DNA of 63,990 nucleotides, filler included, from Ferroacidibacillus organovorans (lineage in GTDB: Bacteria > Bacillota > Bacilli > Alicyclobacillales > SLC66), in the NCBI RefSeq assembly GCF_001642725.1. It is 5 parts of 5 records of this genome, joined end to end, with 100 filler letters (N's around TTAATTAATTAA, not from the genome) between each part and the next. Parts side by side here need not be neighbours in the genome. Positions count along the whole stretch, not along the records: positions 1 to 15,366 come from NZ_LSUQ01000062.1; 4 more parts are not named here. One strand, written 5' to 3'. A program made the position numbers. Each line of letters opens with the position of its first letter. Position 1 is the stretch's first letter. Positions 1 to 9,000 of the stretch are shown here, one piece after another.

Positions 1-3000
1 AAAATCCCTTCGTCCATTCTTGACGCAACACTGGGAACGCATCCGTAGTGAACTCCTTCGGGGAACCTATCAACCATCGCCCGTACGTCGAGTCGAAATC
101 CCGAAACCAGACGGTGGCGTGCGTTTGTTAGGTATTCCCACTGTGCTAGATCGCCTGATCCAGCAGGCTATTCAGCAAGTTCTCACACCTATCTTTGACC
201 CGGAATTCTCACCGTACAGTTATGGCTTTCGTCCGGGGTACAGCGCCCATGACGCGGTCAAACAAGCGCAGGGCTACATTGCGCAGGGATACCGCTGGGT
301 AGTCGACATGGACTTGGCACAGTTCTTTGACCGCGTGAACCACGACATGCTCATGGCGCGGGTCGCACGGAAGGTCGCGGATAAACACCTGCTCAAACTG
401 ATCCGAAAATATTTACAAGCAGGCGTCATGATTGGCGGAGTGTGTGTAGTATCAGAGGAAGGAACCCCGCAAGGAGGTCCCCTGAGTCCATTACTTTCGA
501 ACATCATGCTGGATGACTTGGACAAGGAGCTAATGCGCCGGGGACATCGATTTGCAAGGTACGCGGACGACAGTAACATTTATGTGCGGAGCCGTCGCGC
601 GGGAGAACGGGTGATGGAAAGTGTTACTGAATTTGTTGAAAAGCGACTAAAGCTCAAGGTGAACAGGGAGAAGAGCGCGGTAGATCGCCCGTGGAAAAGA
701 AAGTTCCTTGGCTTCTCATTCACGTGGCATCGCCAGCCTAAAATCCGGGTATCTCCGAAATCTCTCAAACGTTTCAAAGACAGAGTTCGAGATCTGACGA
801 AACGTAGTCGGGGTCAATCCATGGAGGCACGCGCTGCAAAGCTCAATGCGTATCTACGTGGGTGGAGTGGATATTACCGTCTGGCCGAAACGAGGAGTAT
901 ATTCGCGAATTTGGATGAATGGGTACGCCGGAGACTACGGATGTGCCTGTTGAAGCAATGGAAGAAGCCAAAAACGAAGCGAAGGAAACTCGTCGGACTT
1001 GGCATACCCGAGGATTGGGCCAGAATGATTAGTGGTTCCCGTAAGGGATACTGGCGGTTGGCCTTGACTCCTCAGATGAACAAAGTCCTTGGTCTTGCCT
1101 ACTGGCATGACCAAGGACTTGTGAGCTTGGTTGAACGATATGATGCACTTCGTTCCACAACATGAACCGCCGTATACCGAACGGTACGTACGGTGGTGTG
1201 GGAGGTCGGGAGCTAGCCGCTCCCTCCTACCCGATTTCTTCCCGCATAACAACACTACTCGAATGCATATCGGACACCAGGTTAAATAGGGTAGTAGAAT
1301 ACGAATGCAGAGTTCATTTTGAACCTGTCTGTTTCAAAAAGTGAACTTATACAGATGGTACAGATCGGAAATGAACTGATCATAGAAAATATACATTTTC
1401 ATGACATTTTCGTTGAAGTTATGAAGAATTCGGTCGTTTGGGTGAAAAATCATCATGTTTTCTTGCGGTTTATTCATAGAATAGATGAAAGTGTTACAGG
1501 TATGTGATATAGTTAGTTCGTCTGAAGAGAGGGAAGATGTTTATTTCCCAAGAAAGTGAGGGGAGTCATGGATGAAACAGACAAGAAAACGGCGTCTGTT
1601 CATAGGGGTTGCAATGGCGGGTGCTTTCATGCTCGCAGGATGTGGTGTCGTCAATGGCAATGCTTCGTCGATTCTTTCATTCAATTCAAGTGCCAAGACA
1701 GTAACGTTGAATCTGGCTGGCGGATTGAATACGAATAACGACTCGATGAACCTCGACGGGTACTCCCAGGGGCAAATGACGGTCACTGTACCTGTAGGGT
1801 ACAAAGTAAAGGTCGAATTTGTGAATGACGGTGGTATCCCGATGGATCTCGCTGTATACACGATGAACGACCAACTCGCGTTCCCGGGTGCAGGAGACAG
1901 CGTTACGGCAATTCAAGGCAACGCATCAGCAGGTGTCATTCCTGGTCAGTCGACGAGTTTTACATTTACGGCGAGTCAGCCAGGGAATTATCAACTCGCC
2001 AACCTGTTGGATCGAGTAACAGGACACGGCCAGTTTGATTTCGGAATGTGGGCGCACTTTAATGTATCCTCTACAGCGACCCAACCGAGCATTACGCTTT
2101 CGTAAAAGAAGCTTGAGAAAGCGCTTTCGAATATAGGTTTAGCGATGGGAGGATTAGGGCGTGGCAAACGAGGAACCGCAAGAAAAGAAAAAGGTCGAAG
2201 TGGACTGGAGTCGCCGCCAATTTTTGATTGGCACGGGAGCACTCACGGTGGTTGGACTCGGCGCGATGTTTTTGAATGAACCTGTCGCGGCAGCCGTTCG
2301 CTCCGTTTTTGGCCAGCAACCGGAGTCAGGGCCGATCACGGTATTACAGGGCGATTATTTTTACATTCCAAACTACATGACCTGGCGCGTAGGCGATCAG
2401 ATTAGTATGACCATTCATAACACGAGTACGACACACTTCCATGAAATGCAGATTGGACGCGGCTTCAATACGATGCCCACCGCGCTGCAGACCATTCGCA
2501 CGCAGTTTGCGGAAGACTTTTGGAAGGGTGTGCCCGTCACGATTACGGCGGCGCAAGGAATTGATAACTTTGTAACGAATGAGGCGAAAATCTCCTCGGA
2601 CGTACACCCCACGCCTTGGCTATTAACCCAGCCTGGCAATGGTGGCTTTAGCCCAACGATGAAACCGGGTGGACAGATCACACTTAGCTTCACAGTTCCC
2701 AATAAACCTGGTATCTGGCACTACGCGTGTTTTGTCCAAGGGTACATGCACTGGCTTGCAGGAATGCGCGGTACGATTAATATTTTACCGGCCTGATTTT
2801 GTGAATTAGCTTTAATTCTAGCAATCACGGAGTGGAAGGAGGAACACCTGAATGTCAGACGTTGTCCTGTTTGGTATTTTGTGGGTTATTCTCACGATTT
2901 TGGGCGAAATCGGCGTCAGCTTGTGGGGTCATAACATGTACTACTATATGGCTTCCACACAGGCTATCGAGGGCAATCATGCTGCTATCTTTCTAATGAT

Positions 3001-6000: not shown

Positions 6001-9000
6001 GTCGCTCGTAGGACTTCTTTCGGGAAAGATGAGAGCGAGCCGCGTCGGCATTGATGACAGTAACCGCTTCAGCATTGGCGCCAGCTTCAAGTTTTGGATT
6101 TTCTTGCAACTGATGTGGGTCGTACTCTACGTGGTTTACTACTTTATTTAAGGAGGGATTGGCGTGGGCGGATTTTTTCCTTCTTTTCCTTTCTATGTCC
6201 CTGACAGTCCGGGAACACCCCTTTGGTGGGATATCTCGTTCTGGCTGTTCCAGTTAGTCGTCATGTCGGCTCTTTTGCTCACGCTTCGCCGTTGGGCGAT
6301 TCGTGCAGATCTCGATCGCGAAGAGGCTTACCAAGAGAGTCTTCGCACCCCTGAGAAATCCTGAGTAGTGAAAATGCCCTCTTGCGTCTCGCAGGAGGGC
6401 TCTTTTCCTCGTAACTGTCTTCGGATCCTCTTGCATTGACGCAATAAACGAAGAAAGGAGCGCTGCCGAATGGACATGCACGATTTAAACAATACGCAAA
6501 TTTTATCCGTCTATTATTCAAGTTTGATGATTGTGGTATGGATCCTGTTTTTTACGATCTTTACCGTTTCATTCATGACATTCATTTTTAAGTGGGTTGG
6601 GCAACAAGCAGATGAAATGGATCTAAAGCAAAACCCCACAGTTTTAAAAGGGGGCAGACGTGTTCCGCTGCGGCTGATTCCTGGCGGTGGAAATAAGGTA
6701 TTCCAAGCGCGTCACCGTCTGCAAGTGGGTTGGTACATTCTCTGGTATGGACTCGGCGCGATCTGGTTGCTCGACGGTCTGCTTCAAGCGCAGCCCGATA
6801 TGGCGCTCCCGCTTTTTGTGAAACTCGTTTTTCAACCACTCGCGAATGCGCAACCGAGTTGGCTCAAGGCTGTCATGGATCTGGGGATTTATCTCTGGAA
6901 TCAAAATACCGTCACAAGCAATATTGGTGCCGTTCTCATTCAGGTTGGAATTGGAGTTGCTATGCTTACGGGACGCAGTCGTCTCTGGGGCAAGATCGCT
7001 GTTTACGTGTCTCTTCTCTGGTCACTTTCGATCTGGGTCTTCGGTGAAGGAATGGGGAACCTCTTTTCGCACCCCAGTTATTTTAATGGTACACCAGGCG
7101 CTGCACTCATCTATTCCGTGCTATCCTTGTTTCTTATTCTTCCGAAGAAATACTGGTTGGAGGGTCACATTGCACGCTGGTCGTTGCGGGGTTTAAGTAT
7201 CATGTGGATCGTGCTTGCGCTTGCTGAGCTTCTCCCGAAAAATGGCTACTATAGTCCGAACGGACTTTTTTCAATCATCGCCACGCTCTCGAATATGCCG
7301 CAACCGCAATTTATTTCTTCATCCCTGGAATCCATTGCGTCTGCTATTTTTAGGGCGCCAATCGTTTGGAATGTCGGTTTCTCGATGATTATGTTAATGC
7401 TTGGCGTCATGGGATTGTTCGTGCGATCACGCAAAGTGTTTTTAACGCTCACGATGGCATGGTTGGCATTCTCTTGGTGGGCTGGCCAAGACTTTGGCTT
7501 CTTTGGCGGCATGGGTACTGATTTGAATATGTCCCCGCTGCTTGCGCTGATGTATGTTGCGTGTTGGTGGTATGGAGAGGCCAGCGGTGATGGACATTTG
7601 CTCGTACGCTCTGTGAATAATAATGAATCTCTGCGCGCGAACCGCGGATGACATTGCGAAGCGCAACGTTACCCAGTATGATCAGGTAGAGTTGTGTGGA
7701 CAAGTGAGCAGAGTGAGGGTGACAAAGTTGGCAGCGTATTGGGCATTATTCAATGAAATGCTGATGATTATCAGTGCAGTGATTGCTTTGTTTGGATGGC
7801 GTCAAATTCGTAGGAAGAATCGCGAGGTTCATCGCAAATTGATGATGACATCCTCTCTTTTCGGGGCAGGCTTTTTTATCAGTTACGCAGTGGCGACATT
7901 GGCGATTGGGGATACATCCTTCGGCGGTCCACAATCACTTTCTGTCCCGTACCAGATTTTTCTGCAGATTCACGTCATGCTGGCGACGATTGCTGCTGTC
8001 ATGGGTGTGGTTACGATTGTTCTCGCTTTGCGCAGTCGTTTTTCCACGCATCGACGCATTGGTCCGTGGACGGTTATTTTCTGGTTGGTGTCTGCCGCCA
8101 CCGGTTTAGTTGTTTATCTGATGCTGTTTGTGATCTTTCCTCCTGGGCCTACTATTAAAAACTTACTGCATGTGCTTGTCTCGTCAAAATCGTAGGGGGC
8201 TTTCTTGTGAAATGGGCAACATTTGCGTTTGGTATCGTTAGTGTGCTGCTTACAGTCATGACGGGTCTCATTGTTCAGGGTTCGTTTCTCGTTCATGTCG
8301 CATCGTCGGGAACGACACATGAGAAGTTGGCGGTGATCGTTTATGGTGCGGCGGCCATGGCGCTACTCGGTTCGATTATGGCGCTTTTTCGGCCGCGCTT
8401 TGCCGCGTGGTGTTTTGTGATCGCATCGGTTGTCGGTGTATTTGGCGCGTTTGACCTGTGGATGTTTCCGGGTTCGGTGCTGTTTGTCTCGATGATCATG
8501 GCGTTTGTGCAACGCACGGAGCAGACGACGGCGGGTGCAGACAAAAAGGCTTAGTGAGTGCCGAGTGACGTGTACGGGAGCGAACCTTCGCTTCCGTTTT
8601 TTTGTGTGTGAATCTTAATCTACGGCCTAGTTGAACGTCCATATTTATGCGAAGGAGTCATGATATGATCATAAGGTAGTGGTGGTACTACTGCGAGAGG
8701 TGTGATTTTAGTGTTATCGATGAATGATATCCAGGCGCCGCGCTTGGCTGCGACGGTCATTCTGGTCGATGCGTGGAACGCACAGCCGTTTCGTGTCCTT
8801 TTGATCAAACGTCCGAGTCAGCTTCGCGTTTTACCAGGATTTTGGGTGTTTCCTGGGGGGCGAGTCGAGATGGAAGATGGGCTTGGATCGGTCGATGAAA
8901 TGGATGCACTCTTGCATGCGGCCATTCGCGAAACAAGGGAAGAAGTGGGGATTTTACTCGAGAAACAAGCGCTCCTATGGTTCGGGAGGCGAGTTACTCC

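Follow-up and report, generated by a model that had tools for sequence, protein, structure and literature searches.

The locus at 1572-8597 raises the question of which protein donates electrons to the CuA site of a terminal oxidase in a genome that appears to hold no haem c. It lies at the start of the window, the whole 63,990-nucleotide stretch of DNA (filler included) that was analysed, in which positions 1-15366 correspond to contig C62.

The oxidase operon and its copies

Six genes on the + strand form a tight operon spanning 1572-6364. They encode a SoxE-like lipoprotein of 177 aa with the lipobox LAGC (1572..2105; Pfam SoxE 5.6e-15), the 211-aa cupredoxin termed 'Cup2' (2161..2796), the oxidase subunit II CoxB (2852..3655; Pfam COX2, NCBIfam CoxB 2.2e-33), the 628-aa oxidase subunit I CoxA (3682..5568; Pfam COX1 2e-109, NCBIfam CtaD_CoxA 5e-136), a short CoxC-like subunit III of 189 aa (5582..6151; Pfam COX3 2.3e-05, scoring 24.8 bits where the cut-off is 23.8) and a membrane protein of 66 aa, of no Pfam or NCBIfam family, in the subunit IV or CoxD position (6164..6364). 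The module genes are present in the order that the genome-wide survey's note had given. A promoter-like site (ATGAAA-17-TATAGT with TG; 1485..1513, + strand) precedes the first gene as a consensus match only, promoter-like sites being no more numerous in this region than in shuffles, and a terminator-like hairpin of 11 pairs, 8 of them G-C, with a T-rich tail ends the operon (6376..6400, + strand).

The CuA site of CoxB, with the motif CAEVCGPGHPYM at residue 232, is intact, and no cytochrome c domain is fused to the protein; 46 sequences all keep H191, C232, C236, H240 and M243. In CoxA, which carries the GHPEVY and WAHH motifs, about 100 aa extend the N-terminus ahead of the COX1 domain (residues 112-549). 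The 66-aa protein is encoded 3' of CoxC in 56 of the 68 loci with room for it and was not detected in the Acidithiobacillus loci.

Downstream on the + strand are genes for a polytopic membrane protein of 393 aa with no Pfam or NCBIfam match (6470..7651) and a DUF420 membrane protein (7623..8195; Pfam DUF420 6.4e-35), followed by a 115-aa membrane ORF (8207-8554) with a terminator-like hairpin 3' of it (8574..8597, + strand). The 393-aa protein, found in 14 of 77 related loci, has paralogues on C28 and next to the broken module on C39 (see below), and its Atlas model is similar to the membrane portion of Sco-fusion proteins (TM 0.79), a lead to a possible role in copper-site assembly. DUF420 we take to be the family of CtaM, which is required for aa3 oxidase function in Bacillota. 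Both proteins are probably assembly factors. The genome also holds three CtaA-like genes.

As had been claimed, there are three Cup2-bearing modules, on C62, C23 and C27, of which the first two are intact. In the third, IS110- and IS3-type elements interrupt coxA between ..DPSG and FYYLG.., and the gene resumes on C39, the ends of the two contigs sharing 70 identical overlapping bases, which bears out the earlier description of this break. In a quick tree, the three Cup2 copies fall into three old sub-clades of the Cup2/AcoP-homologue family, and one of them is 93% identical to a Ferroacidibacillus organovorans protein. SoxE/sulfocyanin had been placed in all three modules, but a SoxE-like gene was found in only two.

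The AcoP-family cupredoxin and its lipoprotein neighbour

Cup2 had been taken for an unannotated, new protein. It is instead an AcoP-family cupredoxin with a full His/Cys/His/Met site (H94, C190, H197 and M202). AcoP, the 'acidophile cytochrome c oxidase partner', is known from Acidithiobacillus ferrooxidans. Its profile matched the AcoP structure PDB 7Z3B with an E value of 1.3e-31, its Cys, His and Met aligned with C159/H166/M171 of AcoP, and the top seven Foldseek matches of its AF2 model (pLDDT 89.5) were all AcoP chains (TMt 0.80-0.85). Across 42 sequences from four phyla, none of the four ligands varies, and the reported family size of 84 protein clusters was reproduced. The twin-arginine signal (W16-S-R-R-Q-F-L) and a hydrophobic N-terminal helix (18-50) export Cup2 to the outer face of the membrane, where the helix probably anchors it; two TatC copies are encoded in the genome, and the C23 paralogue is without the twin-arginine pair.

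The proposal that Cup2 and coxBAC form a fixed unit held up: CoxB is encoded at most 500 nt downstream of Cup2 in 72 of 75 loci with room, and CoxB, CoxA and CoxC together in 64 of 68, including 10 Acidithiobacillus/Pseudomonadota loci. This link is, however, not new, since the available text of Roger et al. (2014, PMC4059628) already locates AcoP homologues of Sulfobacillus within cytochrome oxidase gene clusters. Nor is the family confined to Bacillota as had been stated, 12 of the 77 loci belonging to Acidithiobacillus or other Pseudomonadota, Trueperaceae or Chloroflexota. For the orthologous Sulfobacillus cluster Sulth_0449-0453, a strong transcript-level response is described in the portion of PMC6315122 at hand.

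As a separate observation, 6 of 72 such genes, from a Sulfobacillus sub-clade, have TGA at the codon of the copper-ligand Cys, and the Sulfobacillus genomes with TGA-bearing Cup2-type genes also hold SelB and tRNA-Sec. The codon probably marks a natural selenocysteine-copper site.

The SoxE-like gene lies upstream in 23 of 72 loci. Its product scored 53 bits against the NCBIfam sulfocyanin model, far below the cut-off of 168. Like its upstream homologues at 23 related loci, the protein has no Cys other than that of the lipobox, and alignment with a canonical type-1 copper protein encoded in this genome showed that SoxE-like proteins are without the first His ligand; a role as blue-copper protein was ruled out on these grounds. 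The AF2 model (pLDDT 80.5) matched generic cupredoxins. By its residues, the lipoprotein is predicted to have a cupredoxin fold that lacks a copper site and cannot hold type-1 copper. Therefore, the two-cupredoxin relay put forward by the survey, from Fe(II) through sulfocyanin to Cup2, fails. The lipoprotein, its copper ligands lost, may serve as an accessory or scaffold subunit with no role as redox carrier.

Absence of haem c and the proposed electron path

Searches of this genome for cytochrome c domains gave no matches for PF00034 and none over the cut-off for PF13442 (best E 0.1). CxxCH occurs in 29 non-dominated ORFs, of which 21 were scanned against Pfam; 13 of these encode Fe-S, Fur, ribosomal and similar proteins, and the other 8 belong to no family and lack a signal-like N-terminus. 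Eight short CxxCH ORFs appear non-coding. ResB had no matches, and CcsA/CcmF-type proteins were not found in the genome apart from HemX, the single Cytochrom_C_asm match (PF01578), which is encoded between hemA and hemC in a hemAXCDBL-like row. None of four Rieske matches adjoins a cytochrome b, and there is no Rieske-cytochrome b operon. The note's account of a genome without c-type cytochromes, ResB or a Rieske/cytochrome bc complex therefore stands. HiPIP was found in none of 18 genomes. Cup2 is carried by 10 of 31 genomes, 7 of which are without a cytochrome c domain (96.8, 100, 97, 99, 73, 99 and 99% complete). We infer that c-type cytochromes, a maturation system for them, HiPIP and a Rieske/b complex are all missing from this genome and from several related ones.

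Alternatively, cytochrome c and its maturation genes might lie in the unassembled 3% of this draft (98 contigs, 96.8% complete), in which case electrons would pass in the usual way, as in Acidithiobacillus, from cytochrome c to AcoP/CuA. Three of the 10 Cup2 genomes, and most Sulfobacillus, do hold cytochromes c alongside the module, which therefore does not require the absence of haem c. We nevertheless consider hidden genes very improbable, as several unlinked sets (cytochromes, ResB and CcsA/CcmF-type proteins) are missing together, and the same sets are missing from a 100% complete genome of the same genus and from five further Cup2 genomes.

Because CoxB keeps all CuA ligands and the genome is without haem c, CuA must receive its electrons from a non-haem donor, and from the joint absence of c-type cytochromes, maturation, HiPIP and a Rieske/b complex we infer that this donor is the AcoP-type cupredoxin. 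We thus favour, as fairly probable, the reading of 1572-6364 as a variant acoP-coxBAC(D)-type operon in which an AcoP-type cupredoxin replaces cytochrome c as the CuA donor. By analogy with Ferroacidibacillus organovorans, its closest named relative, this acidophilic organism is probably an iron oxidiser with Fe(II) as its electron source. The AcoP-type cupredoxin would pick up electrons from Fe(II) at the outer face, directly or via a type-1 copper protein encoded on C28, and pass them to the CuA of CoxB, and the oxidase would reduce O2 on the inner side, consuming protons.

The metal island of C28 encodes two canonical type-1 copper proteins (H..C-x4-H-x4-M), which could themselves be the true CuA donors. 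The AcoP-like protein would then be a protective or assembly partner guarding CuA at low pH, with electrons arriving from a C28 protein or directly from Fe(II). According to the available parts of PMC4059628 and PMC10804444, AcoP was first described as keeping the oxidase active at acid pH, and it has an extended loop reminiscent of copper chaperones. This reading is unlikely in our view, since four invariant redox-site ligands would be needless in a pure chaperone, and the C28 proteins are encoded amid copper-resistance genes (CopA-, CopZ- and CsoR-like ORFs), unlinked to any oxidase.

The module could also be a general aerobic terminal oxidase that draws on the quinol pool instead of serving Fe(II) oxidation. 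Two short cytochrome b genes (C5 and C10), each followed by a gene for a membrane-anchored protein of 341-361 aa and no family, might form Rieske-less pairs for this purpose, but we know of no quinol:cupredoxin reductase that lacks a Rieske protein. Relatives of the organism are obligate heterotrophs (PMC4888994), which would suit a quinol-fed module. However, the genome already holds three CuA-less quinol oxidases, whose best explanation is service in organotrophic respiration, and the named module carriers are acidophiles of mines and geothermal sites and include many known iron oxidisers; a quinol-fed module is accordingly quite improbable. The donor reading of the AcoP-type cupredoxin remains the one that we prefer.

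Comparison with known systems

Sulfocyanin (SoxE) feeds the SoxM oxidase and has been proposed for iron oxidation in Ferroplasma. The first gene of the operon encodes a distant homologue of the Sulfolobus/Ferroplasma protein, likewise a membrane-tethered cupredoxin fold beside an oxidase, but without the copper Cys and the first His. In archaeal oxidases fed by halocyanin or plastocyanin-like donors, a copper protein also replaces cytochrome c as the CuA donor; these donors belong to other cupredoxin families, are not acidophile-specific and have no fixed gene 5' of coxB.

Among the closest known relatives is A. ferrooxidans AcoP (7Z3B/7Z3F), a homologous cupredoxin with 31% identity in structural alignment, the same fold, the same H..C-x6-H-x4-M site and an N-terminal membrane-directed segment; the Acidithiobacillus/Pseudomonadota homologues are 32-36% identical to Cup2. 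Different from AcoP, which has a plain transmembrane helix, Cup2 has a twin-arginine signal and about 26 inserted residues (..DNFVxNKAIVTYxGPK..). As far as the available texts go, AcoP binds both the oxidase and cytochrome c and is proposed to act as electron donor and/or protective partner (PMC4059628, PMC10804444), its role in A. ferrooxidans being unsettled between donor and stabiliser (PMC10804444). The 'Group II' AcoP homologues of Sulfobacillus acidophilus and S. thermosulfidooxidans belong to the same protein family as Cup2; the available text of PMC4059628 describes the N-terminal region of these homologues as 'sequences of unknown function' and, leaving aside figures S3 and S4, holds no discussion of cytochrome c-less genomes, the SoxE-like neighbour or TGA-bearing forms.

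The rus operon of A. ferrooxidans shares the acoP/Cup2 gene directly 5' of coxB-coxA-coxC, and CoxA and CoxB are 41-43% and 35-38% identical, respectively, to their Acidithiobacillus counterparts, the CoxA compared being acoP-adjacent. In contrast to the rus operon, the Cup2 module has no adjoining cyc2, cyc1 or rus and lies in a genome without cytochrome c, a ligand-less SoxE-like lipoprotein gene precedes some Cup2 loci, and the small fourth subunit differs. The operon is best explained as the Gram-positive equivalent of the oxidase genes in the rus operon. The protein is not new, and the system is a Gram-positive version of the known AcoP oxidase system.

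Gene organization and the oxidases of the genome

The contig under study occupies positions 1-15366 of the window; the stretch 15367-57073 consists of other contigs joined by short N runs (352 N in all). Six plus-strand genes of this contig (1572-6364) look like one operon, because the intergenic gaps within the row are 12-55 nt and a strong terminator-like hairpin (6376-6400) directly follows it. They encode a SoxE-like lipoprotein of 177 aa (1572-2105; Pfam SoxE, 5.6e-15), a 211-aa cupredoxin, here termed Cup2, that scored above no family cut-off (2161-2796), CoxB (2852-3655), CoxA (3682-5568), a short CoxC-like protein (5582-6151) and a 66-aa membrane protein (6164-6364). 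The Cup2 gene lies directly upstream of coxB, separated from it by 55 nt. A gene for a group II intron reverse transcriptase/maturase, cut by the contig end so that its 3' part is left, lies some 400 nt ahead of the operon (2-1165; RVT_1 1.2e-41, GIIM 1.4e-25).

Downstream of the hairpin and on the same strand, a 393-aa polytopic membrane protein without a family (6470-7651), a DUF420 protein (7623-8195) and a 115-aa membrane ORF form a further group, closed by a second terminator-like hairpin (8574-8597). Among the sequencing runs listed, none from RNA was found for positions 1572-7651. The 393-aa protein has paralogues on two other contigs of the host genome (C28:26351-27190 and C39:18906-19715), and its type recurs near the Cup2-cox genes in 14 of the 77 Cup2/AcoP-like loci (hereafter the related loci) that were obtained by scanning one genome per species. 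Its Atlas model resembles the membrane part of 613-625-aa fusions of the copper chaperone Sco from Actinomycetota (TM 0.79), and this likeness hints at a possible role in copper-site assembly.

The oxidase of the window displays A-family haem-copper features, namely a COX1 match of 2e-109, GHPEVY, WAHH and the CuA motif CAEVCGPGHPYM, and the CuA ligands of CoxB are invariant across homologues. Three CtaA-like genes, relevant to haem a as the putative cofactor, were found in the host genome. The genome-wide survey's note had described three modules of Cup2, CoxB, CoxA and a CoxC-like protein. All three are present, those on contigs C62 (the contig studied here) and C23 being intact and the third being broken (C27:1-1804 and C39:20826-23645). 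As the note had stated, coxA of the third module is cut by insertion sequences, IS110- and IS3-type elements separating ..DPSG from FYYLG... The 70 bases of C27:1-70 and C39:23576-23645 are identical, and from these identical ends the two contigs evidently join at a 70-base overlap. The CoxB of this module reads CAQLCGAGHSYM. Further oxidase loci lie on C58, C55 and C9, each with four Qox-like genes whose subunit II is without the CuA cysteines.

Copper ligands of Cup2 and of the SoxE-like protein

Cup2 had been put forward as an unannotated new protein, but profile, ligands, fold and gene place identify it as a homologue of AcoP, the cupredoxin partner of the Acidithiobacillus ferrooxidans cytochrome c oxidase. 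A profile of 20 Cup2 sequences matched the AcoP structures in the PDB (7Z3B, 7Z3F and two mutants) at E 1.3e-31 to 3.6e-30, the match to 7z3b_A falling in two stretches over the cupredoxin core; the next PDB match was auracyanin at 2.4e-06. AcoP residues C159, H166 and M171 aligned with the Cys, His and Met of Cup2, and H94, C190, H197 and M202 of Cup2 were invariant in a 42-sequence alignment that included Acidithiobacillus. Cup2 hence carries the AcoP ligand pattern His...Cys-x6-His-x4-Met (H85, C159, H166 and M171 in AcoP), the C-x6-H-x4-M spacing of which is stressed, in excerpts of Roger et al. 2014 (PMC4059628), as confined to AcoP and its homologues. The AlphaFold2 model of Cup2 built from 42 sequences had a pLDDT of 89.5, and its best seven PDB matches by Foldseek were all AcoP chains (E 3.4e-15 to 1.6e-13, TMt 0.80-0.85, 31-32% identity). 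Together, these data indicate that Cup2 is an AcoP-family cupredoxin.

The extended loop region of AcoP named Region 2, described as conserved among homologues from acidophiles, aligns with Cup2, but the Bacillota proteins add a segment of about 26 residues there that AcoP lacks. The two also differ at the N-terminus, which is a plain membrane helix in AcoP, whereas Cup2 has a twin-arginine motif and, behind it, a long helix (residues 18-50). This motif was found in 75 of 84 database relatives and, in agreement with the note, in two of the three Cup2 copies of the host genome, which holds two TatC genes. In the C23 copy (L012:4644-5300) and its clade (related loci L049, L051, L058, L068 and others), W-S-A-T-T-F-F replaces W-S-R-R-Q-F-L. 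Since this sub-clade has lost the arginine pair and retains the hydrophobic helix, it may have switched its route of export or anchoring.

When 1.84 billion representatives were searched exhaustively with a profile, the Cup2 family numbered 642 proteins at E<=0.001, falling to 169 at 1e-10 and to 29 at 1e-30. Because the three host copies fall into three different, well-supported sub-clades of a quick IQ-TREE tree, they are best read as old paralogues. AcoP is further marked by a green, high-potential copper centre and by binding to its oxidase. When the complex of CoxB (residues 112-267) and Cup2 (residues 50-211) was predicted from alignments, the score of 0.00 and the mark of 0.32 spoke neither for nor against binding.

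The first gene of the operon had been considered to encode a sulfocyanin acting as a blue-copper carrier, a view that its residues do not bear out. In the window protein and its homologues upstream of Cup2 at 23 related loci, the mature form has a single Cys, the lipobox Cys24; the extra Cys in four rows stems from over-extended N-terminal ORF calls and lies ahead of the lipobox. Aligned with a canonical type-1 copper protein of contig C28 (..MHGFEV.. and ..YHYLCPVPGHAATGM..), these SoxE-like proteins are without the Cys and the first His ligand, and mostly retain the GMW motif; the type-1 set of His, Cys, His and Met is thus incomplete. The window protein scored 55.6 bits against Pfam SoxE (cut-off 21) and 53.2 bits against NCBIfam TIGR03094 (cut-off 168.4). 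Its model (pLDDT 80.5) gave only loose matches to rusticyanin, CuA domains and nitrite reductase domains (TM 0.4-0.5). We conclude that the SoxE-like protein is a cupredoxin fold unable to hold type-1 copper. The ligand-less set includes two Sulfobacillus-type copies, one from S. thermotolerans (L044:7212-7733) and one from a metagenome-assembled genome (MAG; L039); another SoxE-like copy of the set lies at L012:4022-4606.

In the passages retrieved from studies of Sulfobacillus, sulfocyanin is treated as a candidate carrier of the iron pathway (PMC6315122, PMC6803676, PMC4378227), and the genes meant there may not be these. Sulth_0452, which lies between coxB and soxE, is not listed in the supplement of PMC6315122. 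As far as these passages go, models of iron oxidation in Sulfobacillus and relatives lean on sulfocyanin, and it is the adjoining AcoP-like gene, unnamed there, whose cupredoxin would have a genuine redox site.

Spread of the gene unit and TGA-bearing relatives

A word-indexed protein search reproduced the 84 protein clusters reported for Cup2; the accompanying claim that the family is confined to Bacillota proved wrong. Of the 77 related loci, 65 bear a Bacillota label (Sulfobacillus, Alicyclobacillus, Sulfoacidibacillus and many MAGs), and the other 12 belong to Acidithiobacillus ferriphilus, ferrianus, ferruginosus and ferrivorans with related Pseudomonadota, one Trueperaceae and one Chloroflexota. 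CoxB is encoded on the same strand at most 500 nt downstream of Cup2 in 72 of the 75 loci with room for it. Where the full row could be followed (68 loci), CoxB, CoxA and CoxC come after Cup2 in 64 and are joined by the 66-aa protein in 56, this protein being undetected in the Acidithiobacillus-type loci of the neighbour survey. A SoxE-like gene precedes Cup2 at 23 of 72 loci with room.

The Acidithiobacillus loci display the known acoP-coxBAC order, and their CoxA and CoxB are 41-43% and 35-38% identical to those of the window. The fixed Cup2-coxBAC unit proposed in the note is therefore real, but as the acoP-cox unit it is not a novel one. Nor is the linkage to cox genes new, since the AcoP homologues of S. 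acidophilus and S. thermosulfidooxidans were already placed in oxidase gene clusters in the consulted portions of Roger et al. 2014 (PMC4059628). That Acidithiobacillia and acidophilic Bacillota have acoP-coxBAC in common points to an exchange of an acid-proof oxidase between iron oxidisers.

The codon of the Cys ligand could be read in 72 Cup2/AcoP-like genes of the 77 loci and was TGC in 40, TGT in 26 and TGA in six, the three Cup2 genes of the window's genome all having Cys. The TGA forms occur in Sulfobacillus harzensis DSM 109850 (L064:8529) and at five further loci (L038:1235, L054:686, L065:5503, L082:8544 and L083:8053). Past the TGA, 20-21 further codons can be read in frame, and these include the His and Met ligands (..WHYG-TGA-FVQxAxHWRFGM..). 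Variable columns at codon positions 1, 2 and 3 number 5, 3 and 12 in the 21 codons after the TGA, and 6, 3 and 18 upstream of it. W[HQ]YG forms the very end of 11 of the 84 database clusters, and these stop immediately ahead of the TGA-codon site. Among five TGA-form genomes tested, SelB scored above the cut-off in all five and tRNA-Sec (anticodon tca) was found in three; Sec-type fdhA genes are also present in TGA-form genomes. In the quick IQ-TREE tree, the six TGA forms fall within one supported clade of 10, interleaved with four Cys forms, and in five of the six genomes a Cys paralogue accompanies the TGA form.

The 50 nt after the UGA contain two hairpins; these are also present in a close Cys orthologue, and their loops are unlike the GGUCU loop seen in fdhA of those genomes, so that SECIS hairpins and codon-driven structure look alike here, six sequences being too few for covariation. 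A degenerate DNA pattern scan of metagenome contigs returned 44 stretches, none with an AcoP-like context, and hence no further TGA-bearing genes. Judged from these gene sequences, a Sulfobacillus sub-clade probably makes an AcoP-type protein with selenocysteine as a copper ligand. We found no report of a natural selenocysteine cupredoxin in the literature searched, part of which was available as excerpts. To our knowledge, selenocysteine as a ligand in a copper electron-transfer site has so far been only synthetic, in azurin; if the reading is true, the TGA forms would provide a natural one.

Apparent absence of haem c and the proposed electron path

The claim that the host has no c-type cytochrome and no maturation system held up in domain searches, a scan of CxxCH ORFs and an inspection of PF01578 proteins. 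The draft genome (96.8% complete) gave zero matches to PF00034 and a best E of 0.1 for PF13442; a weak PF13442 match on contig C1 was a HERSAL repeat and not a cytochrome c. ResB also had zero matches, but its absence is uninformative among the relatives, because it was missing from all 31 genomes compared (the host and 30 relatives), including the 12 with cytochrome c. The argument on maturation rests instead on the single Cytochrom_C_asm (PF01578) protein of the host, which lies between hemA and hemC as HemX does; with no PF01578-type protein other than HemX, the host has no CcsA, CcmC or CcmF.

CxxCH occurred in 73 of 14193 six-frame ORFs of at least 60 aa, and in 29 once ORFs lying largely within a far longer one had been removed. 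Of these, 21 were scanned against Pfam, 13 being Fe-S proteins, Fur, glutamate synthase, L31 and similar, and eight having no family; in these eight, as in the eight unscanned short ORFs, nothing at the N-terminus resembles a signal, and most overlap another ORF of about equal length. The candidate most like a cytochrome (C73:1997-2335, CAQCH) was rejected, being antisense to an HTH-type ORF and without a family match.

Cytochrome c domains were found in 12 of the 31 genomes, both Pfam models picking the same 12. Cup2 was found in 10 of the 31, seven of which are without a cytochrome c domain, among them genomes from three other genera and, from the same genus, one that is 100% complete. By these searches cytochrome c seems to be absent from the host genome, and since seven of the 10 Cup2 genomes share this state, one of them complete, the pattern is not an assembly gap. 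The same oddity was met in one Sulfobacillus MAG and taken as missing data, according to the part of Justice et al. 2014 consulted.

The note's statement that the genome has no Rieske/cytochrome bc complex was likewise confirmed, as none of the four Rieske matches adjoins either cytochrome b gene. HiPIP was found in none of 18 genomes. Each cytochrome b gene forms a pair (C5:84730-86426, equivalent to L018:3730-5426, and C10:874-2467, in L019) in which a short cytochrome b of 204 or 213 aa is followed by a family-less protein of 341-361 aa with N- and C-terminal membrane helices, and no Rieske protein or cytochrome c lies near either pair. Rieske-less petB-like genes are also noted for Sulfobacillus in excerpts of PMC4378227.

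With neither a cytochrome c domain nor a maturation system in the genome, cytochrome c does not qualify as the donor to the window oxidase. We infer that the AcoP-type cupredoxin, which carries export signals, would donate electrons to the CuA of the oxidase encoded beside it, the electrons being drawn from Fe(II) at the outer face of the membrane, perhaps directly or perhaps by way of the C28 copper proteins. Fe(II) is the presumed source because the closest named relative is an iron oxidiser: one Cup2 paralogue is 93% identical to a protein of Ferroacidibacillus organovorans, described as such in PMC4888994 and in the available text of PMC11123200. Three genome announcements for 'Acidibacillus ferrooxidans' contain nothing on respiratory genes. 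Two canonical type-1 copper proteins of the same genome (C28:5069-5338 and C28:20557-21219, the latter equivalent to L021:5558-6220) might be rival electron carriers or copper-handling proteins, and C28 is rich in copper-resistance genes (P-type ATPase, CopZ-like, CsoR-like). That the tethered AcoP-type cupredoxin constitutes the whole extracytoplasmic iron chain, taking electrons straight from Fe(II) as sole donor to CuA, so that in these Gram-positive acidophiles two components replace the Cyc2-rusticyanin-Cyc1 chain known from Acidithiobacillus in a cell with no haem c, is a tentative and rather doubtful proposal.

As far as the literature was accessible, the protein family, its copper site and the cox linkage in Sulfobacillus are already in print, and we found there no account of the Cup2 N-terminus as a Tat signal, of the loss of copper ligands in the neighbouring 'sulfocyanin' or of the module recurring in genomes without any c-type cytochrome. 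In the sections seen of a 2024 structure paper (PMC10804444), the role of AcoP, as a donor or as a protective partner, is still called unsettled. Genomes with acoP-coxBAC and no c-type cytochromes would offer simple organisms for probing this role, and the retention of acoP-coxBAC with an intact CuA where c-type cytochromes have been lost represents a natural experiment that favours AcoP as a donor.
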